The notes beneath the pieces are model-generated. The model worked only from the letters and a program-made list of their open reading frames with translations, did no database searches and was not told the DNA's origin. A stretch of 64,000 nt of DNA from Terrimicrobiaceae bacterium (GTDB lineage: Bacteria; Verrucomicrobiota; Verrucomicrobiia; Chthoniobacterales; Terrimicrobiaceae), in contig JBIIPZ010000008.1 in assembly GCA_044342325.1 (NCBI GenBank), forward strand, positions 1 through 64,000. Reading direction: 5' to 3'. The number at the start of each line of letters is the position of its first letter. Within the stretch, counting starts at the first letter, position 1. The position numbers and the translations under genes are program-made. Shown here piece by piece: positions 8,098 to 57,635 of this stretch.

Positions 8098-9017
8098 CAC
8101 GGCTTCTTCTTCGCAAGCGATAGTCCGGCGATTTCCTCGCAGAGGGATGGGAAGTCGAGTCCAGCCACGGCTGCCGCCTTGGGTAGAAGGCTCAACTCGG
8201 TCATGCCCGGGATGGTGTTAATTTCCAAAACACTCATCGAGCCGTCCGGCGCGAGCAGGATGTCCACGCGGGAGTAAACTTCGAGCCCGAGAGCGAGGTG
8301 CGCTGCGCAGGCGGTGGACTGGACACTGGCTGCTTGGGCCTCTGTCAGAGGAGCAGGAACGAAATATTCGGATGCCCCACTGGTGTATTTGTGGTCGTAA
8401 TCGTAGAAACCATCGTGGGGAACGATCTCGACAACCGGCAGAGCCTCGCCGCCGAGGATTCCCACGGTCAGTTCCCTGCCTACAAAGAAACTTTCGATAA
8501 GCACTTCCTCGCCATATTGGAAGCAGTCCTCCAGCGCGGCGGGAAGTGCTGAGGCCTCACGGATGATGTGCACGCCCACGCTGGAGCCTTGGCGTGGTGC
8601 TTTTACGACATAAGGCAACGGGAGGCTCGGGGACTCTCCTTGACGGATTTTTTGCCATGTCGATGTCGGCACTCCCGCGCGGTCGAAGGCTTCTTTCGAA
8701 AGGATTTTGTCGAACGCCGTGTGGCTGCCCGCAATTCCCTCGCCTGTGTAGGGTATGCCCCGGTCATGGAGGATCGATTGCAGTTGGCCGTCCTCACCGA
8801 ATGTGCCGTGGATGATGTTGAATGCCAGATCCACCGATTCGGGCAGGTTTATTTCCGTGGTGGTGACATCGATTTCAACGACCTGGGCCCCGGCGGCGCG
8901 GACGGCTTTCGCAACGGCAGTTCCTGAGCGGAGTGACACATCGCGCTCTTTGCCTGGGCCGCCCTTGAGAAGCGCCACGGTTTTGTTTTTCAGAATTCCG
9001 GAATGCTGTTGCTTCAT
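8097..9017 (-). CDS. ddl: D-alanine--D-alanine ligase
   Basis: HGTFGEDG, GSSVGV, FYDYDHKY, LEINTIPGMTELSLLP. Confidence 0.96.
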   Translation of the reverse strand: MKQQHSGILKNKTVALLKGGPGKERDVSLRSGTAVAKAVRAAGAQVVEIDVTTTEINLPESVDLAFNIIHGTFGEDGQLQSILHDRGIPYTGEGIAGSHTAFDKILSKEAFDRAGVPTSTWQKIRQGESPSLPLPYVVKAPRQGSSVGVHIIREASALPAALEDCFQYGEEVLIESFFVGRELTVGILGGEALPVVEIVPHDGFYDYDHKYTSGASEYFVPAPLTEAQAASVQSTACAAHLALGLEVYSRVDILLAPDGSMSVLEINTIPGMTELSLLPKAAAVAGLDFPSLCEEIAGLSLAKKKP

Positions 9018-11302
9018 AAATCTACCCCTGCAATTTGAACCTCGGTTTCAAGATGGATGCCGCGTGTTCGCTCAGCGGCAGTCTGGATTTCTTTGATCAG
9101 GGTCAGGACATCCGAAGAGGTTGCTCCTCCGTCGTTCACGATGAAATTCCCGTGAATTTCGGAAACGCGGGCGCCGCCGACGGAGAAATTTTTAAGTCCA
9201 AGTTCCTCGATGAGTTTGCCTGCAGGAATCGCGGATGGGTTTTTGAAAATGCATCCTGCGCTGGCCGCTACGGGTTGGCTGGAGCGGCGCTTGGCGACGG
9301 ACTCTGCGATCGTGGCATCGATTTCGCTCTGTGTGCCGGGTGTTCCAGCAATAACGGCTGAGAGCGCGTAGTTTGTCCGCAGCATGGGAACACTACGGTA
9401 GTGAATTTCCATTTCGTCAGGGGTCCGGGTGAAGATGTTTCCATCCTGATCGCAGAAGCGAACCTTCACGACTTGATCGAATGTTTGGATGCCCATGGCT
9501 CCGGCATTCATTCGCAAGCCGCCACCGAGGTTGCCCGGTATTCCTTCCATCCACTCAAATCCCGCAATATTTGCCGTTCGCGCCAGTGCGCTGAGTTGCT
9601 TGAATTTTACGCCCACACCCGCGGTGATCTCTGTTCCATTCACTTCGTGCCGTTGGAAGTCGCCGCGCGCGAGGTGCGCCACCACGCCGGGGATGCCGCC
9701 ATCGCGCACAAGAAGGTTCGAGCCGCGACCCATGACCATGAGAGGGATGTTTTCGTCAAAGCAGTGCCTAACGAGGTCTGCGAAGCCCTCTTCACTGTCG
9801 GGCTCAACCCAGAACTGGGCCGGTCCACCGATGCGCATCGTGGTGTGTTTGGAAAGGGGCTCGTAAAGTTTGATTCGGCCCTGCCCCATCACGCTCTGGA
9901 GGGTGTCGCGCATTTTCAGATCTTGCGCGAGGCGCTGGCCCGCCTCGTGGATATTTCCGGCGCCGAGGCTGAGGATCAGGTCGCCATCCTCCGTCACGGA
10001 GGCGGCTGCTTCATGAATTCGGGAAATCTCGGGCACATGGGTGGCGGATGCATGCCCGGCGGCGACCATGGCATCGACAATCGTCTGTCCGGAAATGCCG
10101 GGGATCGGTTTCTCGCTCGCGGGGTAGATGTCGGAAACAAAAACATGGTCCGCCAGCGCAAAAGCTTTGCCAAATTCGTCCTTCAGAACCTGGGTGCGCG
10201 TGTAGCGGTGGGGTTGAAACATCGCAATCACCCGTCCGTGTCCGCCGGTTCGAGCGGTGGCGAGTGTGGCAGCGATTTCCGTGGGGTGGTGCCCGTAGTC
10301 GTCAACTATGGTCTGGCGGGGCGATTCATGAATGATTTCGAAGCGGCGCTTGGCCCCACGGAAGCTCTCGAGTGCGCTGACGATGGAGTCGAAGGGCTGT
10401 CCGATTTCGCTGGCCAGCGCAATTGTGGCGAGGGCGTTTACCGCATTGTGGGCACCCGGGATGTTCAGCACGACTTCGCCGAGTGTCTTTCCGTCCTTGC
10501 TGACGCTGAAGCGAGATTTGAAGTTTTCTGTAGTGAGGTTTGTGATGCGATAGCGAGACTCGGCCCCGAGTCCGTAGGAAATGGCATGGGCGTGTGATGC
10601 GCAGACGCGTCGCGCTCCGTCGTCATCCGCGCAGTAGAAAACCTTGCCGGATGTTTGGTTGATGAGGCGTTTGTAAACGGCATCGATTGCAGCGAGATCC
10701 TTGTAAAAATCGAGATGCTCCGGCTCGATGTTGAGCACGATGGCGTGCTCGGGGTGGTAGTTAATGAGTGTTCCGTCGCTCTCATCGCCCTCGGCGACAA
10801 ACCACTCGCCTTCGGAGTCCCAACGTGCGTTTGTTCCCAGAATCGGAATTTCCGCGCCCACATAGTGACAAGGCTTGAAGCCCCCGGCGCGGAGGACATG
10901 GGCCGTCATGGCGGAAGTGGTCGTTTTGCCGTGCATGCCGCAGACCACGATGCCTTTCTTCGAGTCCATGATCGCAGCCAGTGCGTCGGCGCGGCGTGCG
11001 AGGGGCAGCCCCAAGCGCACGGCTTCATCGTATGCGGGATTCCCTGCTTTAATCGCGGAGGAGTAAATCACCACATCCGCGCCGCTCACGCACTCCGAGG
11101 AGTGTGGGCAATGAAATACGAGGCCTTTTTTAATCAAGCGTTCGACCTCGGTTGTGTGAACCTTGTCGGACCCGCTCACTTTGTGTCCGAGTCCAAGCAG
11201 CAGCGCGGCGATACCGCTCATGCCGGAGCCCGCGACTCCGATCAGGTGGATATGCTTTGGCGTTGGCGCAGTGAGTGACTGGCGTAGCTCGGCGGCTGTC
11301 AT
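9014..11302 (-). CDS. murC/murB: Bifunctional MurC-MurB fusion (UDP-MurNAc--L-Ala ligase plus UDP-N-acetylenolpyruvoylglucosamine reductase)
   Basis: N-terminal GVAGSGMS, GMHGKTTTS, EGDESD, DDYGHHPTEI (MurC); C-terminal HTTMRIGGPA, GRGSNLL, GIPG.LGG...MNAGA, SAGCIFKNP, HGNFIVN (MurB); one 762-aa frame. Confidence 0.95.
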   Translation of the reverse strand: MTAAELRQSLTAPTPKHIHLIGVAGSGMSGIAALLLGLGHKVSGSDKVHTTEVERLIKKGLVFHCPHSSECVSGADVVIYSSAIKAGNPAYDEAVRLGLPLARRADALAAIMDSKKGIVVCGMHGKTTTSAMTAHVLRAGGFKPCHYVGAEIPILGTNARWDSEGEWFVAEGDESDGTLINYHPEHAIVLNIEPEHLDFYKDLAAIDAVYKRLINQTSGKVFYCADDDGARRVCASHAHAISYGLGAESRYRITNLTTENFKSRFSVSKDGKTLGEVVLNIPGAHNAVNALATIALASEIGQPFDSIVSALESFRGAKRRFEIIHESPRQTIVDDYGHHPTEIAATLATARTGGHGRVIAMFQPHRYTRTQVLKDEFGKAFALADHVFVSDIYPASEKPIPGISGQTIVDAMVAAGHASATHVPEISRIHEAAASVTEDGDLILSLGAGNIHEAGQRLAQDLKMRDTLQSVMGQGRIKLYEPLSKHTTMRIGGPAQFWVEPDSEEGFADLVRHCFDENIPLMVMGRGSNLLVRDGGIPGVVAHLARGDFQRHEVNGTEITAGVGVKFKQLSALARTANIAGFEWMEGIPGNLGGGLRMNAGAMGIQTFDQVVKVRFCDQDGNIFTRTPDEMEIHYRSVPMLRTNYALSAVIAGTPGTQSEIDATIAESVAKRRSSQPVAASAGCIFKNPSAIPAGKLIEELGLKNFSVGGARVSEIHGNFIVNDGGATSSDVLTLIKEIQTAAERTRGIHLETEVQIAGVDL

Positions 11303-37689: not shown

Positions 37690-39003
37690 ATGCTTGAGAC
37701 GCTGAAAGAATTGATCCTCGATTTTCAGGAAATGCACTTGAAAACGGGTGTGCCGAGAAGGGTTTCTGTTTCAACAATTCCCGGTAAGGCCACTGTTTGT
37801 ATCGGTGTGCGCCGATGCGGCAAATCCACCTTCATGTTTCAAATCATGAAGCAGATGTTGGATTCCGGTGTCTCGCGGAACAACATTCTATACCTCAATT
37901 TCTTCGATGACCGTCTTCATCGCTTGCAGCAGGAAAATCCGGGGCTGATCCTCGAGGCTTACTTTTCGCTGTATCCGGAAAAAAAGAACACCGAGAAGGT
38001 TTATTGCTTCTTTGATGAAATCCAGATGCTTCCCGGTTGGGAGCGTTTTGTTGATCGTTTGATGCGCACCGAGGAGTGCGAAGTCTATCTCACGGGATCA
38101 TCCGCCCGAATGCTCTCGAAGGAAATTGCCACCGAAATGAGAGGCCGGGCTCTGTCATGGGAAATGTTTCCGTTTTCGTTTCGGGAATTTCTGGATTTCA
38201 AGGGCATCGACAGCAGCGGAGTTTTATCAAGTAAAAGGCGTTTCACCATCCAGCATGCATTCGGTGAATTTTGGGAATGCGGAGGGTTCCCGGAAGTTCT
38301 CGGCCTCGATCGCTGGACTCGGGTTAAAGTCCATCAGGAATATTTCCAGACAATGCTCTTTCGCGATCTCGTGGAGCGGCATGATATCGCCCACCCCAAA
38401 GCGGTGACGGACCTGGCTCACTGGCTGGCGGACAACGCTGGTTCACTTTACTCGGTCAACAATCTCACGGGTTACCTGAAATCCCTCGGCCACAAAGCTC
38501 CGAAATCCGCCGTGGCCGATTATCTCGAATGGTTTCAGGACGCCTATGTCTTCTTCACAGTCCGACTCTTCGACGCCTCGCTGGCAAGATCCAACACCAA
38601 TCCCAAAAAGATTTATTGCATCGATCACGCTCTGGTGAGGTCCGTCAGCTCCGGGGTGCTTATCAATTCCGGCCACTTGCTCGAAAATCTCGTTTTTGCA
38701 GCCTTGCGCCGAGTGGAGCCGGAGATTTTTTATTACAAAACCAAGTCGGGCCGCGAGGTCGACTTCTTGACCTCACGGCGTGGCGACTCGCGCAGGCTCG
38801 TCCAAGTCTGTGAGTCACTGGCGATGCCGGAAACGCGCCAACGGGAAATCACCGCTCTGGGCGAGGCCATGGTCGAGCTGAAATTGACGCAAAGCTGCAT
38901 CGTCACGCGGAGCGAGGAGGATCGTATCGAGTTGGACTCTGGAGTCATCGAGTTGGTTCCTGCCTGGCGTTTCCTTTTGAATTTGCCCGACGGCTCAGGA
39001 TGA
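37690..39003 (+). CDS. AAA_14 ATPase with DUF4143 C-terminal region
   Basis: GVRRCGKS (Walker A), FFDEIQ (Walker B), TGSS, GGFPE, KKIYCID, ENLV, EVDF. Confidence 0.9.
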   Translation: MLETLKELILDFQEMHLKTGVPRRVSVSTIPGKATVCIGVRRCGKSTFMFQIMKQMLDSGVSRNNILYLNFFDDRLHRLQQENPGLILEAYFSLYPEKKNTEKVYCFFDEIQMLPGWERFVDRLMRTEECEVYLTGSSARMLSKEIATEMRGRALSWEMFPFSFREFLDFKGIDSSGVLSSKRRFTIQHAFGEFWECGGFPEVLGLDRWTRVKVHQEYFQTMLFRDLVERHDIAHPKAVTDLAHWLADNAGSLYSVNNLTGYLKSLGHKAPKSAVADYLEWFQDAYVFFTVRLFDASLARSNTNPKKIYCIDHALVRSVSSGVLINSGHLLENLVFAALRRVEPEIFYYKTKSGREVDFLTSRRGDSRRLVQVCESLAMPETRQREITALGEAMVELKLTQSCIVTRSEEDRIELDSGVIELVPAWRFLLNLPDGSG

Positions 39004-39057
39004 GAACACTTGGGTTCGAAAGAACGAGTTCAACTCTCGGCAAGCGCTGGAGGGGGG

Positions 39058-39129
39058 AGCCGACAGTCGGATTCGAACCGACGACCAGCGGTTTACAAAA
39101 CCGCTGCTCTACCACTGAGCTATGTCGGC
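39058..39129 (-). tRNA. tRNA-Thr (anticodon UGU)
   Basis: GCCGACATAGCTCAGTGGTAGAGCAGCGGTTTTGTAAACCGCTGGTCGTCGGTTCGAATCCGACTGTCGGCT folds as a cloverleaf; CCA is not encoded (CCC follows). Confidence 0.97.
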
Positions 39130-44568: not shown

Positions 44569-45115
44569 TCAGAGCAGCAGAAGAAAAACCGCCACGCAGA
44601 TCGCAGTTGGAATGAGAGCTGCGAGGAAAAGCTTCAGCGCGCTCACACCGTTCTCGCCAAAGTAGGATTGCAGAATCGACTGGCCGGCCGGATTCGGGGC
44701 ATTGGCGATCACGGTAAGCCCGCCGCCCGCGACGGCACCCGCCACGACAGCGAGTTTAGCCTGATCAGAAAATCCGGGCACGAGCGATGCCAGATATGTG
44801 ATCGCCGCATTGTCGTTGAATGCCGTGAGCACGGTTGATCCGAGAAGGAGTTGGGTCGGGTTCAGACTTGTCAGCACCGGCTCGATCCACCACTGCTGGC
44901 AGCCTCCGTGAATGACAAGCCCGGCCAGGAAAAAGCCCACGAGCACAGGGCCTCGTAGACTGATCGCATCTTGGTTCCTCTCCGTGGCGGCCACAAAAGC
45001 CAGGAAGAACATGAAGGTTAAAACAACCATCGCCGCATAGAGGGCTGTGTAAACGACAAACCCAATGAAGAGGACATGACAAAGTATGAACTGGACAGGA
45101 ACTTGAGGGGCTTTA
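44569..45115 (-). pseudogene. C-terminal remnant of a DUF1504-type putative Na+/H+ antiporter
   Basis: VGFFLAGLVIHGG.Q.WWI.PVL, LTAFNDNAAITYL, GGGLTVIANAPNPAG; only about 180 aa remain and the N-terminal half is replaced by an IS fragment. Confidence 0.75.
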
Positions 45116-45122
45116 TCCGTAG

Positions 45123-45290
45123 CGTGCGCAGGGTTCGCAGGGCATACCCGCACGATGGGAGTTGATCGACTTCTTGCCGCTCGAATGCCGTCCGCATGCG
45201 ATACGAGCAGATTGTAACTACGGCAATGAATCCAAGATGATCGAATATGAAAAATGTGGCATCCCCTATCTCTTCAACCTCAGACATCCG
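45123..45290 (+). mobile_element. Internal fragment of an IS1380-like transposase
   Basis: Start-less frame reads ...WELIDFLPLECRPHAIRADCNYGNESKMIEYEKCGIPYLFNLR, matching the R(G/A)D..(F/Y)GNE...E..G.PYLF.LR pattern. Confidence 0.65.
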
Positions 45291-45439
45291 TTTTCCCTCA
45301 GCTCATGATGTCTGAGGTTAATCCAATCCCATCGCCCTACTAAAAACCGGTATAAACTTGAAGTTTTTCCTTTTGGATTGGCGTTGAATTATTCCCCTTG
45401 TGCAGAGCTTTTGATAATGTCTTCTGCGCGAGGGGATAA

Positions 45440-45647
45440 ATTCGAACAAATCCACGCGAAGTCCTGCAGGCAAACGGGAGCGAATCCATTCCGGATTGAT
45501 TGGCCAATGCAGGAAAAGAAGCCGACTCCACCGCTGACGCATCACTGCCCGAGAAGGCGGAGTCTCCCTCATCGAGAGACCCTGATGGTGCGTTGGTGTC
45601 CTTGGCGATGAGTTTGCTCGAACTCCCGAGCTTGGGTCTTGTTTCAT
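45440..45647 (-). pseudogene. N-terminal remnant of a YqjF/DUF2071 family gene
   Basis: VMRQRWSRLLFLHWPINPEWIRSRLPAGLRVDLF, then similarity ends abruptly. Confidence 0.75.
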
Positions 45648-45827
45648 CACATATTGGTTATGCTGCAGGCATACGAACGCGACTTCCAAAAACCAACAAT
45701 CGGGGCCAAGGGATCACTCGCACAAAGCGTGCTGCCAGCCCGAAAATTTAAAACCTAACCTATCCTGTATCGCCAGCACGCGCGAGATAGCCAAGCCTCC
45801 TTGGCCTTCGCGTCTCACACGCTTTCC

Positions 45828-53081: not shown

Positions 53082-53468
53082 TTATTCCAAACCACGCTCG
53101 GAGAGGTCACCCTCGTCGAGCCCGAGGTAGTGGCCGAGTTCATGGAGGAATGTGATGCGCACCTCCTCGCGATAGGCGTCCTCCTCGGCCTCACACATAT
53201 CCCAGAGATTTCCCAGCCACAGCACGATCCTCGGCATTTGAGGGCTTGCTGGATCCGTGGCATCCGCGCCTTCGAAGAGGCCGAGTTGGTCGCTATCCAC
53301 GCCATCCGCCTCATGTGCCGTCGAGGGGAATTCCTCCAGCACCATGGCCACCTCGCTCAGAGCGTCGCGAAGTGGTGCAGGTAGCTCCGAGCGGGTTTTT
53401 TCGATTTCCTCGGTGGCCACTTCCATCAGGTAGGCAAATGGCGCGTCGGGATTGTTTTCAAAGTTCAT
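53082..53468 (-). CDS. Minimal zincin-like metallopeptidase (DUF1025/Zincin_1-like)
   Basis: LGLFEG, EEVRITFLHELGHYLGLDE. Confidence 0.87.
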   Translation of the reverse strand: MNFENNPDAPFAYLMEVATEEIEKTRSELPAPLRDALSEVAMVLEEFPSTAHEADGVDSDQLGLFEGADATDPASPQMPRIVLWLGNLWDMCEAEEDAYREEVRITFLHELGHYLGLDEGDLSERGLE

Positions 53469-53588
53469 GGCCTTTTTTCGGAGCCATCGGCTCAGACGCA
53501 GCACACATTCAGTGGCTCATCGAAAAAAGCCAGTAATTCTGTTTTCAAAAGCGGATGCCTTAAACTAACGTGCGCACTTGATTTCGTT

Positions 53589-54248
53589 ATGGGCCCCGAA
53601 CACGAGTTTATTGAAAAAAGCCTCGAACTTTGCCAGAGCGGAGACATGGAAGAACTTGCTCGCGTCTATTTAGAGCTTCTTCCATTGCTTCAAGGATACC
53701 TCCAAAACCTTGGCGCCTCTTCGCTCGAGGCGGAAACGCTGGCGGTCGAAGTTCTGAGTGATTGTTTGGTTGGAACTCTGAGTCGCCCGCCTCTGATCAA
53801 TAAATGCCAGGGGCGCAGTTCTCTCGCCACCTGGATGAGTGCTGTGGCCAGAAACCGATACTATGATTTTATGCGTGGACAAAAAATGGATCGCGCCATC
53901 GCCTCGGATCTTCAAGAGGCCTTGGTCGCAGGGGATCAGTGGGTTGAAACCCGCGTTCAAGATGAACACCTTTTCGAGGCTTTGCGCTCGGCGTTGGTTC
54001 GGGCTTTTCAAGCCTTATCAGCCACTGATGCCGTTCTCCTCCACTTGGTGCATGGCCACAAGGTGGATCAACGCATTCTCGCGAGATCACTTGGTTGGTC
54101 GGATACCAAGATGAGCCGCCATCTCGCATCCCTCCGATGTAATCTGAAGCTCCATGTCCAATCCTTGCTCCGCGATGTGGAGAGAGGCGATCCGCCAAGC
54201 TGGGAGGACCTGATTCAGGTTTGCGGTCAAATGGTTGAACCACTCTGA
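53589..54248 (+). CDS. ECF-type sigma-70 factor
   Basis: Region 2 SSLATWMSAVARNRYYDFMR; region 4 HTH ALSATDAVLLHL...QRILARSLGWSDTKMSRHL; short C-terminal extension. Confidence 0.82.
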   Translation: MGPEHEFIEKSLELCQSGDMEELARVYLELLPLLQGYLQNLGASSLEAETLAVEVLSDCLVGTLSRPPLINKCQGRSSLATWMSAVARNRYYDFMRGQKMDRAIASDLQEALVAGDQWVETRVQDEHLFEALRSALVRAFQALSATDAVLLHLVHGHKVDQRILARSLGWSDTKMSRHLASLRCNLKLHVQSLLRDVERGDPPSWEDLIQVCGQMVEPL

Positions 54249-54254
54249 AAAACA

Positions 54255-54527
54255 ATGGCTACTCTTTCCTTTGATTCCACCCCAGACGATGCGCCGTTCC
54301 AGTTTCTTCTCGATATGTTTCTGCGCGCCGAGTCATTGGCTTGTTTTGCTGGTCACTCTGACGAAGAAGAAATCAACGGAACTATGCAGGAAATGGCGGC
54401 GGGTCGCCTCGCCCCGGTCGATGTGCAGGAGCTTTTCGGTAAGCTCAGGTCGGATCCCTCCGCCGTGGCCCGCCTCGCCTCACTGCTCCAAGAATCCAGG
54501 GGTGGCGATCGGGAGGCTGAGGAATGA
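54255..54527 (+). CDS. Small acidic helical hypothetical protein (90 aa)
   Basis: Starts 6 bp after the sigma stop; ATGA overlap with the next gene; no TM segment. Confidence 0.65.
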   Translation: MATLSFDSTPDDAPFQFLLDMFLRAESLACFAGHSDEEEINGTMQEMAAGRLAPVDVQELFGKLRSDPSAVARLASLLQESRGGDREAEE

Positions 54528-55159
54528 AGGGCGATAACTCGCGTTACATCATTCCGGCAGCCGCATTGCCCGATGGCATCCAACTCCCGCAGGGAACCGG
54601 CCTGGTGATGGATGCTTGGATGGACGCGCAAGCTGGTGCGATCTGCCGGGGCGAGTGGAGTGGATGGCCCTGCGCCGGGGGATTTGATTTGCTGCGCGAT
54701 GCGGTGACTGCCACCGATGCGGATGACGGAGTGCTCTGGTTGGTGGACGATGTGAAACGCGAGCTGCGTCCCTGCTTCAGCATCGGGCAGCATTGTGAAA
54801 TCTTTCTCAAAGAGATTCGTCAACCGCTCACCTCGGGCTTGATCAGCATGGTTTTTTTCACCGAGGACTCGATCTGCGAAGCTGAAGTTAGACGCCGGAG
54901 CGAGTATTGCCCGGATGTCGATTCGCGTCTCGGCGCGAAGACAAAAGCCATGATTGCGGTCCCGATCTTTTTTGCACAGCGGTGCAGGGGAGTTTTTTCG
55001 GCCGTTCTCTTCGAGGTTAGTTCCCAAGTGACGCATAAGGAGGCCTTCCTACACTCGGATTTTGAAACGCTCTCTCAGGCGGCCACGCTCTGGGGCGAGT
55101 TGATGGATTCGCAACTCGCTGGAGTCGGAATACAAGGCGGCGCAAACTCGGGTTTATGA
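54524..55159 (+). CDS. Stand-alone GAF-domain protein
   Basis: ADDGVLWLVD, GLISMVF.T, VDSRLG.KTKAMIAVPI....CRGVFSAV, F..SD.E.L pattern; no output domain. Confidence 0.8.
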   Translation: MKGDNSRYIIPAAALPDGIQLPQGTGLVMDAWMDAQAGAICRGEWSGWPCAGGFDLLRDAVTATDADDGVLWLVDDVKRELRPCFSIGQHCEIFLKEIRQPLTSGLISMVFFTEDSICEAEVRRRSEYCPDVDSRLGAKTKAMIAVPIFFAQRCRGVFSAVLFEVSSQVTHKEAFLHSDFETLSQAATLWGELMDSQLAGVGIQGGANSGL

Positions 55160-55920
55160 GTGGAGTCATTCGCTGGGAGGACTTCCCGGATGCCGTGCGG
55201 CGTGGTGACGGGCGAGGGGTGAGGATTGCGGTGCTTGATTCCGGCATCGAAAGGCTTCATCCGGGATTTGAAGGGGCTCACTTTGATGACGATCTTTGCT
55301 TTGCGACTACGGAAAATGGCGAGGCTCCAAATGATGCCGGCGGGATGGATTTCTTTGGTCATGGAACGGCTGTGGCATCGGTGCTTCTTCAGACCGCCCC
55401 CGCTGTCACGATCGGCAGCTTCCGCGTTCTTGGCGGCGAGGCTTACGGTCGGGATGAAATCATTCGCCGGGCCGCATTGGAGGCCATAGCGCGTGGATAC
55501 CACATCATCCACTGCAGCTTTGGCGCGAGCGGGTCGCCATTCACCGTGATGTCGTTCAAATCGTGGATCGATGCCGCGTATCTAGCCGGCGTTCATATTG
55601 TCGCGGCCTGCAATAATGGCGGATCATCTGTGCGTGTTTGGCCAGCGCATTTTTCAAGCGTGGTCGCGGTGGATTCCGCCGCTGGGGTTTCCAGCGGGCA
55701 AATCCAGAGGCGTGCTGGATCGCTTGTGGAGTTCGCTACTCTGGGAGGCGTTCGGGCGCGTTTGCCTTGGAAGGATAAAACGATGCGCAACATTGCGGGA
55801 ACGAGCTTTTCCGCCCCAGTGGCCACGGGCCTCATGGCCAGGATTCTCTCCATCCATCCCGACATTCATCCCGACCAGATGAAGATGATTCTGCGGGAAA
55901 TCGCCGAGCCTGCGGAGTAG
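55156..55920 (+). CDS. Minimal subtilisin-family (S8) serine peptidase without signal peptide or prodomain
   Basis: GRGVRIAVLDSG (Asp), GHGTAVA (His), AACNN (oxyanion Asn), GTSFSAP (Ser); 254 aa. Confidence 0.9.
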   Translation: MSGVIRWEDFPDAVRRGDGRGVRIAVLDSGIERLHPGFEGAHFDDDLCFATTENGEAPNDAGGMDFFGHGTAVASVLLQTAPAVTIGSFRVLGGEAYGRDEIIRRAALEAIARGYHIIHCSFGASGSPFTVMSFKSWIDAAYLAGVHIVAACNNGGSSVRVWPAHFSSVVAVDSAAGVSSGQIQRRAGSLVEFATLGGVRARLPWKDKTMRNIAGTSFSAPVATGLMARILSIHPDIHPDQMKMILREIAEPAE

Positions 55921-55950: not shown

Positions 55951-57528
55951 CTACTGGATCGAGGGAGGAACGGGGCCGGTTTTGGGAACGAGGCGGAGAA
56001 TGACCGTGCGGTTGCGCGCAGCGGCATTTGGGACATCGCTCGAGAAAGGCTGGGTCATGCCGCCGGTCGAACTCACAAGCAGGCGCTCTGCGGGAAAGTT
56101 GCTATCCTCGCGCAAGACTTCCGTGGCGGCCACAGCACGGCGAAGTCCGAGCGTGTAGTTATCGCGGAATGGTGACTGCTGGCGCATGGCAGTGCCGTCC
56201 GTCTGGCCTTCGATGATAAGCCAGAAGTCCGGAGCGTTCTTGGCGATCAATGCTCCTGTGAGAGCAAGTTGCTCGCGGCCTTTTTTATCCACTTTCAAGC
56301 CTGAAGCGAAGATGCCTTCTTCAAACTTGATGCGTATCTCGTTTTTGTTGCTGGTGATCACGCAGCCGGGGAGTTCCATGAGGCTTGGGAGCAGGCGGTT
56401 GATTGCTTCCAGATTCTGGTCGGGAGCAGGCGCTGCCGCAACAGGGGCAATCGGTGCGGTGCGGGCGGGCACTTCCGGCGTCAGGGTCACAGGCTTCGGT
56501 GTCGGAGCCTCTACAAGTGCGACTGGCGCAGGCGTAGGTGCAGGTGTGGAAATCGTCTCGGTCACAGCGGCAGGCATCGGCGCGGAGGCGGAGATGTTTG
56601 CCTGAGATGCGATCGGCTCATCGTTGTCGTTATGTTTATAAACAACCTGAAATTCCGGCAACACGGGCATGGTGGGTTGCGGCTTAGGCTGGGCGAGCGG
56701 CGAGGGGGCCGGTTCGCCGGGATTGAGGAGTTCTTTGATGCCGAATCCTGCGGCGCCAAGAACGACCAGAATCACAACCCAGTAAGCGAGTTTCCGAAAG
56801 GCGTTCATGCCTCCACCGGAGCGGTCGCCATTGCGAGAGGGAGGAAGCGGAACGGCTCCGGGCTTGTTGTAGGGACGCGATATCTCCACGGCATCGGTGT
56901 CGTGTGAGGTCTCGCGGTTTGTTTCGCGGAATGCCGGGAGGGCAGATGCTGAGGGCTGAACAGCTTTACGAATCTTCGGTTCTCTCGGTGCAGGAGCCGC
57001 TTTGGAAGATTTTTTGCCCTGCGATTTTTCAGAGATTTGGGCCATGAGCTCTAGGGCGGAGGTAGAGCGAGCCGGTGCCTTGCGGGCGGCTTTAGCTGCG
57101 GGTTTGGCAGGAGCCTCTTCTTCGTCTGGTTGCTCGATCACTTCGCTGACACCGCTGAATTCGTCAATCTCACGCACTTCGCCGACGGAATCGAAATCGT
57201 CATCACCGACCGAGCCAACCATTTCCTCGACCACTGGCTTGATTTGCCGAGCCACGGTGGACTCGGCTTTTTGAAGCTTGGCGGGAAAATCGACCTCGGC
57301 TGGTTCGCCCACTGATTCTTCAGGCAGATTGGTGGCTTCGCCATCGCGTTCGCGCATCCAATTTTCCAGTGCGAACCGGTTGAACCGCCACTGGCGTCCG
57401 ACTTTCACTCCGGGCAATTGCCCCTCGCTGCAGAGTTTCAAGAGTGTGGACTTGGGCATTTTGAGGAAGACTGCCGCCTCGTCGCCGTTCATCACTTCAT
57501 TTTGGGGAGTTGTTTGATCGTTTGCCAT
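55951..57528 (-). CDS. Fusion protein: excisionase-type HTH, disordered linker, TM helix, Pro-rich linker and OmpA/MotB-like domain
   Basis: VMNGDEAAVFLKMPKSTLLKL...GQLPGVKVGRQWRF; RKLAYWVVILVVLGAAGFGI; IEGQTD...NYTLGLRRA...NRTV. Confidence 0.85.
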   Translation of the reverse strand: MANDQTTPQNEVMNGDEAAVFLKMPKSTLLKLCSEGQLPGVKVGRQWRFNRFALENWMRERDGEATNLPEESVGEPAEVDFPAKLQKAESTVARQIKPVVEEMVGSVGDDDFDSVGEVREIDEFSGVSEVIEQPDEEEAPAKPAAKAARKAPARSTSALELMAQISEKSQGKKSSKAAPAPREPKIRKAVQPSASALPAFRETNRETSHDTDAVEISRPYNKPGAVPLPPSRNGDRSGGGMNAFRKLAYWVVILVVLGAAGFGIKELLNPGEPAPSPLAQPKPQPTMPVLPEFQVVYKHNDNDEPIASQANISASAPMPAAVTETISTPAPTPAPVALVEAPTPKPVTLTPEVPARTAPIAPVAAAPAPDQNLEAINRLLPSLMELPGCVITSNKNEIRIKFEEGIFASGLKVDKKGREQLALTGALIAKNAPDFWLIIEGQTDGTAMRQQSPFRDNYTLGLRRAVAATEVLREDSNFPAERLLVSSTGGMTQPFSSDVPNAAARNRTVILRLVPKTGPVPPSIQ

Positions 57529-57635
57529 GCCAGATTTGTGGGGAGCGAACCTGCAATAAAAAGCAGGCGGATGCAAACATTGCTTTTCGGGTTTGTCGTT
57601 GCCGGATGCGGATTTTTTCGAGAATGCTTGAGGAA

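Follow-up and report, generated by a model that had tools for sequence, protein, structure and literature searches.

A GAF–subtilase gene pair joined to an ECF-like sigma factor and a candidate soluble anti-sigma protein in a Terrimicrobiaceae bacterium

Introduction

What might join an extracytoplasmic function (ECF)-like sigma factor, a protein of only 90 amino acids, a stand-alone GAF protein and a minimal cytoplasmic subtilase (peptidase family S8) in a single run of four genes? The question is raised by positions 53589-55920 of a 64,000-nucleotide stretch from a Terrimicrobiaceae bacterium (assembly GCA_044342325.1, contig JBIIPZ010000008.1, positions 1-64,000, forward strand), the whole of which we call the window. 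An earlier note, made from the window without database searches, had suggested a soluble switch: the GAF protein would gate the subtilase in trans, and the subtilase would cleave either the 90-amino-acid protein, taken as a putative anti-sigma, or a C-terminal extension of the sigma factor. We compared the locus with its relatives and modeled its products, and we tentatively favor one form of this idea, in which a GAF-gated subtilase would cut the exposed linker of a two-site soluble anti-sigma and thereby release the sigma factor; the cleavage, the binding of GAF to S8 and the ligand are steps that we infer.

Results

Layout of the locus

All four genes lie on the forward strand: the sigma gene (219 amino acids) at 53589-54248, the 90-amino-acid gene at 54255-54527, the GAF gene (211 amino acids) at 54524-55159 and the S8 gene (254 amino acids, no prodomain) at 55156-55920. 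The sigma stop is separated from the next start by 6 bp (TGA aaaaca ATG), and the two following junctions are ATGA start/stop overlaps, at 54524-54527 between the 90-amino-acid and GAF genes and at 55156-55159 between the GAF and S8 genes. The order, coordinates, common orientation, gap and overlaps given in the earlier note are exact on the open reading frame (ORF) listing and the sequence. Its view that none of the products has a transmembrane segment or signal peptide agrees with a Kyte-Doolittle scan of the four proteins (no 19-residue window above 1.39, and no transmembrane segment or signal-peptide core seen; no dedicated signal-peptide predictor was run). A scan of the region for sigma-70 promoters returned no sites, and its four terminator-like sites are within the shuffled expectation of 4.6. 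The arrangement is beyond chance, because the same genes recur together in other species.

The GAF-S8 pair and its link to the sigma factor

An S8 profile scan of one genome per species yielded 80 loci (numbered here L001 onward), the best S8 being 48% identical to that of the window and most of the closest loci belonging to Verrucomicrobiota. Of the 36 closest loci, 33 have a GAF ORF as the immediate upstream neighbor of S8, often with an overlap (the exceptions are L013, L014 and L035), and an ORF with a Pfam GAF domain occupies this place in 28 of the other 44, giving 61 of 80 loci from about 10 phyla. The 28 distant loci come from Actinomycetota, Chloroflexota, Pseudomonadota, Acidobacteriota, Myxococcota, Lentisphaeria, Methylomirabilota, Dormibacterota and the Baltobacteraceae lineage; the remaining 16 hold classical I9 subtilases (L074, L079), long Opitutales enzymes (L050, L058, L066, L077) or unclear ORF calls in high-GC sequence. 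GAF-S8 is thus a conserved two-gene module, far wider than the four-gene set and mostly found without a sigma factor. The two proteins very probably act together.

Co-occurrence of all four genes in other genomes, which the earlier note had named as one check on its proposal, was found: all four families are together in 15 of the 80 loci, six of them in the order of the window. With an iterated sigma profile, strong relatives (E <1e-60) emerged from 14 of the 36 closest loci as well as from L061, and every one of these 15 loci has a gene of the small-protein family beside the sigma gene; three weaker sigma matches (L014, L035, L038), which lie 4-5 kb from S8 with no small ORF, were left out of the count. 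The order sigma, small protein, GAF, S8 is seen in L009, L010, L015, L024, L025 and L061, and in L005, L008, L011, L026, L029 and L030 the small and sigma genes are divergent and just downstream of S8. L034 has a convergent arrangement, L007 has sigma and small genes downstream and a second small gene upstream of GAF, and L021 (3215-5085, reverse strand) has the sigma gene followed by three tandem small-protein paralogues, divergent from GAF-S8, with a trypsin-like peptidase and a TPR-S cyclase downstream. In L003, L016, L027 and L031 the small gene stands at a contig end.

On a tree of the S8 proteins, which largely follows taxonomy, the sigma-linked loci fall in at least six clades, and the labels require four changes for the co-linear arrangement and eight for "sigma and small gene elsewhere in locus." The genes have therefore stayed associated through repeated rearrangement. 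What the protease pair and the sigma factor have in common is the small protein, since one Verrucomicrobiales/Akkermansia clade of five loci (L017, L019, L032, L033 and L036) keeps the order small protein, GAF, S8 with no sigma gene within 6 kb.

The subtilase

The S8 protein matches PF00082 at 84.5 bits (cutoff 21.8). Its catalytic residues are Asp28 (gat, 55237-55239), His69 (cat, 55360-55362) and Ser217 (agc, 55804-55806), all on the forward strand; they are invariant in 30 of 30 relatives (42-87% identity), in which the oxyanion residue Asn154 is nearly invariant. Across the loci the triad is intact in 80 of 80 S8 proteins, including all 61 that are GAF-linked, and the oxyanion Asn is kept in 56 of those 61. 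The profile begins to align at residue 19, opposite residue 21 of mature subtilisin BPN', the N-terminus being short and variable, and there is neither a match to the I9 propeptide family (PF05922) nor a hydrophobic N-terminus. Because the alignment starts at residue 21 of the mature enzyme and no I9 match was found, the protein has no prodomain, nor room for one, and so the alignments and the I9 search bear out both the intact Asp/His/Ser triad and the missing prodomain of the earlier note.

The GAF protein

The GAF protein consists of an N-terminal helix (residues 26-41), a GAF core (about 51-165) and a C-terminal helix of 33 residues (177-209), and it has, as had been noted, no output domain. 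Its identity is upheld at the level of the family, by a profile search of the PDB and by an AlphaFold2 (AF2) model compared with Foldseek (GAF structures at 2.5e-9). A profile of 31 Verrucomicrobial and Gemmatimonadaceae GAF proteins found CyaB2 best (1ykd, 5.1e-20), then Lcd1 (5w10, 6.5e-12), followed by the GAF domains of PDE5/6, PDE2A and PDE10A; a wider alignment gave 1ykd first, then 5w10 and 4mcw, with the GAF domains of methionine-sulfoxide reductases at about 2e-3. The AF2 model is confident (predicted local distance difference test, pLDDT, 87.8; predicted template modeling score, pTM, 0.83), and its top fold matches are PDE2A, cAMP-bound Lcd1 (5w10), an HD-GYP GAF, PDE6C, PDE10A, PDE5A and CyaB2, the GAF domains of free-Met-sulfoxide reductases ranking lower. 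By sequence and by fold, the family is closest to cAMP/cGMP-binding GAF domains. The NKFDE motif of PDE GAF domains is not evident in the Verrucomicrobial proteins, and we give this no weight either way.

The GAF proteins end in the long helix and then a short conserved tail of hydrophobic, Gly and hydrophobic residues (55054-55159 in the window). This helix and tail could be the element that contacts S8.

The sigma factor

An alignment of 16 family members places sigma-2 at about residues 27-99 and sigma-4 at about 133-190, a size and layout that fit an ECF sigma factor, and adds a family-specific C-terminal tail. Relatives in the other loci match Sigma70_r2, Sigma70_r4 and Sigma70_ECF, with scores that in some cases reach or slightly exceed the Pfam gathering threshold and in others fall short of it. 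The conserved part of the tail, residues 201-212 (54189-54224, forward strand), carries the motif DPxLxLxWEDFxxLC, in which D201, P202, W205 and C212 are nearly invariant. The C-terminal extension seen in the earlier note is thus present and conserved; as a cleavage target it is less obvious, because in the model described below it docks the first helix of the 90-amino-acid protein.

Inspection by eye of the regions upstream of the 16 sigma genes, whose ORF starts are uncertain, made no common promoter motif evident. In two related loci a tRNA-Arg (tcg) lies directly upstream of the sigma gene (L010:4146-4219 and L025:4137-4211), which may mark an integration site or simply synteny.

The 90-amino-acid protein and its modeled complex with sigma

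An exhaustive phmmer search of the 90-amino-acid protein against 1.84 billion representatives gave four matches: two full-length relatives (P0173 and P0174), one protein matching in its N-terminal half only (P0175) and a repeat protein (P0176) that we judged spurious. The small ORFs upstream of GAF across the loci show a shared pattern, and a profile built from these and the 90-amino-acid protein collects 27 small ORFs in 24 loci, with true lengths of about 67-90 amino acids. By this profile, the protein is the founding member of a previously unnamed family, in which an amphipathic helix at the N-terminus and a helical C-terminal half are joined by a linker; 23 of 25 members carry [ED]VxG[RHKQ] in this linker. 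There is no zf-HC2 match and no HxxxCxxC motif in its sequence. An Atlas search returned unnamed small Verrucomicrobial proteins first and, at a score of 0.79, a cluster with zf-HC2 in 41% of its members, which we treat as a lead only.

We also came upon a 306-residue database protein (P0031) in which an N-terminus like the 90-amino-acid protein runs into a GAF protein 66% identical to that of the window. Its sequence diverges after the half that resembles the small protein, so that a frameshift or read-through is a likelier origin than a true fusion, and it was not counted.

The AF2 monomer of the 90-amino-acid protein is weak (pLDDT 66, pTM 0.38), with helices at residues 10-27, 37-48, 54-66 and 68-87 and the least confident stretch at 30-34 (pLDDT <50). 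Its weak, non-significant Foldseek matches, to RslA (3hug_F) and to the N-terminal domain of DdvA (8rlz), are leads only. Together with sigma, the protein gave a complex model scoring 0.61 (runs 0.59, 0.61 and 0.69) against 0.00 for the best of three controls; at least 65% of contacts are common to the runs, and the partner pLDDT is at least 65. Of the solved complexes, 116 of 157 reach the mark applied to this score, as do 2 of 215 mismatched pairs; these counts hold only roughly here, as our own alignments were used. The best run brings residues 11-27 of the small protein against sigma 133-187 and the tail at 204-212, and residues 47-81 against sigma 18-63; the contacts of lowest error join sigma 205, 208, 209 and 212 to residues 14-18. 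Residues 28-46, which include the linker, lie outside the confident interface.

The 90-amino-acid protein is thus predicted to clamp sigma-2 and sigma-4 while leaving its conserved linker exposed, and from the place of its family beside sigma in 15 of 15 loci and the model that passes its controls we consider it likely that it binds the sigma factor. The earlier suggestion that it is the partner of sigma, and putatively its anti-sigma, gains from both results.

A possible match between the S1 pocket and the linker

The exposed, low-confidence linker of the 90-amino-acid protein, residues 28-36 (CFAGHS; 54336-54362, forward strand), aligns with [ED]VxG[RHKQ] and is the putative cleavage site. 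On the protease side, the residue of interest aligns with position 166 of subtilisin BPN', which forms the floor of the S1 pocket. Among the 36 closest loci, 35 have Glu here; the window (Val161, 55636-55638, forward strand) and its relatives of at least 55% identity have Val. In engineered subtilisins, an acidic residue at 166 favors a basic P1 residue. Where the pocket has Glu, a Gly in the linker of the small protein precedes Arg, His or Lys; in the clade of the window the linker is degenerate, reading AGH in the window itself and holding no basic residue in P0173 and P0174. This apparent covariation of pocket and linker, drawn from essentially one clade split, may serve as a lead.

Cyclases and other neighbors

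A profile search placed a class III cyclase domain inside the locus (up to 6 kb) in 17 of the 80 loci, 13 of which are among the 36 closest. Five loci (L009, L010, L015, L021 and L025) have TPR-S cyclases, two (L011 and L016) have cyclase-STAND-TPR proteins in the same operon, and in L002 cyclase, GAF and S8 follow in a row in one operon. This recurrence of nucleotide cyclases, and the wider, mostly sigma-free distribution of GAF-S8, are two points that the earlier note had overlooked.

In Actinomycetota and in the alphaproteobacterial locus L043, the minimal S8 lies beside cyclic nucleoside monophosphate (cNMP)-binding ABC/MFS transporters (some with FHA) or a Crp-type regulator. These loci (L038, L040, L042, L043, L059, L065 and L068, with a paired GAF gene in L038, L042 and L043) look like a second, sigma-free wiring of the same module. 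Weighing against a cyclic-nucleotide or conflict setting, several clades are found in stable housekeeping contexts, such as lpxC-fabZ and lpxA in Chthoniobacteraceae and ribE, GHMP kinase and lpxK in the window, and the S8 tree largely follows taxonomy.

Other features of the window

The flanks of the locus are ordinary chromosomal genes: riboflavin synthase (ribE), a Zincin_1 protein, a protein with HTH_17 and OmpA-like domains, a GHMP kinase, LpxK and an Mrp antiporter, with a dcw cluster farther off. The Zincin_1 metallopeptidase-like gene (53082-53504, reverse strand, 140 amino acids) and the sigma gene are divergent; the former does not appear among the module neighbors scanned in L001-L045 and is probably incidental. 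Convergent with S8 is a gene on the reverse strand (55951-57576) for a 541-residue protein with an N-terminal excisionase-type HTH_17, a long Pro/Ala-rich middle and an OmpA/MotB-like peptidoglycan-binding C-terminus, an unusual combination of domains. Elsewhere, two short ORFs at 44569-45689 (reverse strand) match their families only in part (Na_H_antiport_3 at positions 236-419 of 419 and DUF2071 at 1-33 of 212) and may be truncated or decayed genes. Inside the dcw cluster, a single ORF of 762 amino acids (9014-11302, reverse strand) carries both MurC-type ligase domains and MurB domains, and an AAA_14 and DUF4143 ATPase gene (37690-39003, forward strand) adjoins a tRNA-Thr at 39056-39129.

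Discussion

The question posed at the outset can be answered in part by treating the four products as two coupled pairs: the sigma factor with the 90-amino-acid protein, and the subtilase with its co-translated, stand-alone cNMP-type GAF protein. In the mechanism that we propose, helix 1 of the small protein would grip sigma-4 and the C-terminal tail of sigma and helices 3-4 would grip sigma-2, so that the sigma factor is held inactive. The GAF protein would bind the subtilase and adjust its activity in response to a small ligand. The likeliest ligand is a cyclic mononucleotide from a class III cyclase, an enzyme that is encoded next door in many relatives and would be encoded elsewhere in this genome. 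Once active, the subtilase would cut the anti-sigma in its linker, the half-sites would lose their avidity, and the freed sigma would direct transcription of a presumed regulon.

These steps are of graded strength. That GAF regulates the activity of S8 is a reasonably good expectation; that the ligand is a cyclic mononucleotide we hold to be evenly balanced, and that S8 cuts the small protein falls slightly short of that. The soluble switch of the earlier note is strengthened in several of its parts (the co-occurrence of the genes, the GAF-S8 pairing in 61 of 80 loci, the modeled partnership of sigma with the small protein and the cNMP-type GAF); its remaining steps we infer.

Several results weigh against the proposed mechanism. 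Two proteins of the window score under the cutoffs of the families to which we assign them: as a single sequence its GAF protein reaches 22.1 bits against GAF_2, under the cutoff of 28.6, and its sigma factor, while sigma-like, falls just under the curated cutoffs (22 bits for Sigma70_r2, cutoff 24; 38.2 for TIGR02937, cutoff 42.9). The 90-amino-acid protein has no Pfam or NCBIfam match at E up to 0.1, anti-sigma families included, its low-confidence monomer model found no PDB structure with Foldseek at E up to 0.001, and the success of the complex model may partly reflect likeness to solved sigma/anti-sigma complexes. The match of linker to S1 pocket is broken in L024, and the G[RHKQ] motif is absent from two of the three closest relatives of the small protein. 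The 59 window ORFs of at least 90 amino acids yielded no cyclase domain, and a search for natural GAF-S8 fusions among longer proteins found eight relatives, none with a GAF domain (which is weak evidence). Finally, neither the small protein nor sigma accompanies GAF-S8 in 10 of the 33 close GAF-linked loci (two of which end at a contig edge) and in 27 of the 28 distant ones; with so many sigma-free pairs, sigma control cannot be the general function of the module.

This last point leads directly to the strongest alternative, which we regard as fairly unlikely for the window: an ordinary sigma/anti-sigma pair would only control GAF-S8, or be co-regulated with it, and the subtilase would be an effector acting on other cellular or foreign proteins, leaving the anti-sigma untouched. 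In the 37 of 61 GAF-linked loci without sigma or small protein the subtilase must indeed have other substrates, and some loci have neighbors of the kind found in conflict systems (TIR, caspase, patatin, trypsin and nSTAND1/STAND NTPases). The PADLOC "subtilase" profile (PDLC03014) matches S8 at 1.2e-21, but only over positions 169-374 of 391, the catalytic half, and PADLOC makes no system-level assignment for the locus. An effector acting elsewhere would, however, leave unexplained why the linker is conserved and exposed and why it appears to covary with the S1 pocket, and the five-locus clade that keeps the small gene directly upstream of GAF-S8, with no sigma nearby, ties that gene to the protease.

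Both other alternatives fit less well. The small protein, the GAF protein or both might replace the I9 propeptide as a foldase or inhibitor in trans, with ligand sensing and sigma control secondary or absent. The missing prodomain, the order small protein, GAF, S8 without sigma in five loci and the GAF/S8 overlap, which fits a stoichiometric complex, all lend themselves to such a role, and yet it is improbable: the small protein is modeled as all-helical rather than I9-like, it stands beside sigma and not S8 in nine loci and is placed onto sigma by a model with passing controls, the GAF protein is closest to ligand-binding cNMP GAF domains, and the intracellular subtilisins of Bacillus fold without a classical prodomain. 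Maturation of a bioactive peptide by removal of the leader of a 90-residue precursor, as QhpE does for QhpC, is highly improbable even with QhpE (NF049966) as the best NCBIfam match of S8 (1.2e-24), a conserved internal site in the small protein and MbnB-like and radical SAM genes near the distant locus L037, given that the QhpE score (86.9 bits) is far under its cutoff of 165 (as is that for mycosin under its own), that domain scans of the window and hydropathy of the four proteins found no qhp genes near S8 and no modification enzyme, exporter or signal peptide, and that the whole small protein is conserved as helices contacting sigma in the model.

Cleavage of a soluble anti-sigma by the GAF-gated subtilase, to return to the mechanism that we favor, would have precedents in its logic. 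In the CalpL/CalpT/CalpS system, a type III CRISPR-associated Lon-SAVED protease, activated by cyclic tetra-adenylate (cA4) from Cas10, cleaves the soluble 33-kDa anti-sigma CalpT, which holds the ECF sigma factor CalpS (PMC11417357). As in Calp, there would be a cytoplasmic serine protease under a sensor of a nucleotide second messenger, a soluble anti-sigma and a transcriptional output, features that are only proposed for the window; whereas Calp fuses Lon to SAVED, the window has a subtilase, a separate GAF protein and a 10-kDa candidate anti-sigma. No Lon, SAVED or cas gene is among the Pfam matches of the window, in which CRISPR repeats were not searched for. In Craspase (gRAMP with TPR-CHAT/Csx29), a defense-linked protease cleaves Csx30, which controls the ECF sigma factor RpoE (PMC10028731; also PMC12642450); this is an RNA-guided, caspase-like protease that is not known to have a small-molecule sensor, and none of its families is present in the window. 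By analogy, the proposed logic parallels that of CalpL/CalpT/CalpS and of Craspase-Csx30 with different parts.

A GAF-bearing protease that cleaves a transcription regulator, switching on a response, is known from IrrE/DdrO and CapP/CapH (bioRxiv 10.1101/2022.04.27.489752). As described there, these are zinc metallopeptidases with the GAF domain fused in cis and a helix-turn-helix repressor as target, CapP being activated by single-stranded DNA; the window has an S8 serine peptidase, a GAF protein in trans and a proposed anti-sigma target. The defining domains of Calp, Craspase and IrrE/CapP were not found here, and the system of the window is a member of none of them.

The individual proteins have likenesses of their own. 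The cNMP-type GAF domains of CyaB2, Lcd1 and PDE2A/5/6/10 are fused to cyclase, diguanylate cyclase or phosphodiesterase outputs, in contrast to the GAF protein of the window, which stands alone. Like the class I anti-sigma domains (RslA-SigL, DdvA-DdvS), the 90-amino-acid protein is a small four-helix protein modeled in contact with sigma-2 and sigma-4; unlike them, it has no Pfam match to zf-HC2 or another anti-sigma family, no HxxxCxxC motif and no transmembrane segment, and its helix 1 docks a family-specific sigma tail in the model. The subtilase resembles the intracellular subtilisin proteases of Bacillus in being a cytoplasmic S8 enzyme without a classical I9 prodomain; those enzymes are restrained by a short N-terminal extension and are not known to have a GAF partner. 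SprA of Corynebacterium degrades the cAMP regulator GlxR and is likewise a subtilase, but it has a signal peptide, is mycosin-like and is 414 amino acids long, so we set it aside as not of this clade.

The earlier note had not recognized the locus as a characterized system, and full-text literature searches likewise found no published description of the GAF and S8 module or of its link to sigma. In the accessible parts of the re-classification of ECF sigma factors (PMC7826278), subtilases occur beside ECF26, ECF33, ECF54 and ECF221 and GAF beside ECF35s2 only; its supplement has no group with GAF and subtilase together among the groups that it covers, from which later ones may be missing. Two surveys from the Aravind group (PMC7159879, PMC8195603) have GAF and S8 only in other contexts, and PMC12642450 links S8 proteases to MBL effectors and not to GAF or sigma, in each case in the parts of the papers that were available.

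A wider reading is more speculative and, in our view, rather doubtful as a whole. GAF-S8 might be a widespread, undescribed class of second-messenger-gated cytoplasmic proteases (in about 10 phyla) in which a stand-alone cNMP-type GAF protein switches a prodomain-less subtilase in trans. Its members in Verrucomicrobiota and one or more other phyla would be connected to a new family of minimal soluble anti-sigmas and their sigma factor, with TPR-S- or STAND-linked class III cyclases as upstream sensors. If this were so, it would amount to a stress or immune pathway that signals through cyclic mononucleotides, acts on transcription and is independent of CRISPR and CBASS.

Should the narrower mechanism proposed for the window be true, the subtilase, with its GAF sensor in trans, would be a third, mechanistically distinct protease that releases an ECF sigma factor from a soluble anti-sigma, after CalpL and Craspase, and one that is found in ordinary chromosomal neighborhoods. 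It would bring to light a new anti-sigma family whose small size and divergence put it beyond the reach of current profiles, and four small soluble proteins would offer synthetic biology a compact protease and sigma switch, possibly under the control of a ligand. It would also show how a cytoplasmic subtilase is kept safe without a propeptide, and would give a function to a GAF-S8 pair that is conserved in at least 61 species of many phyla.

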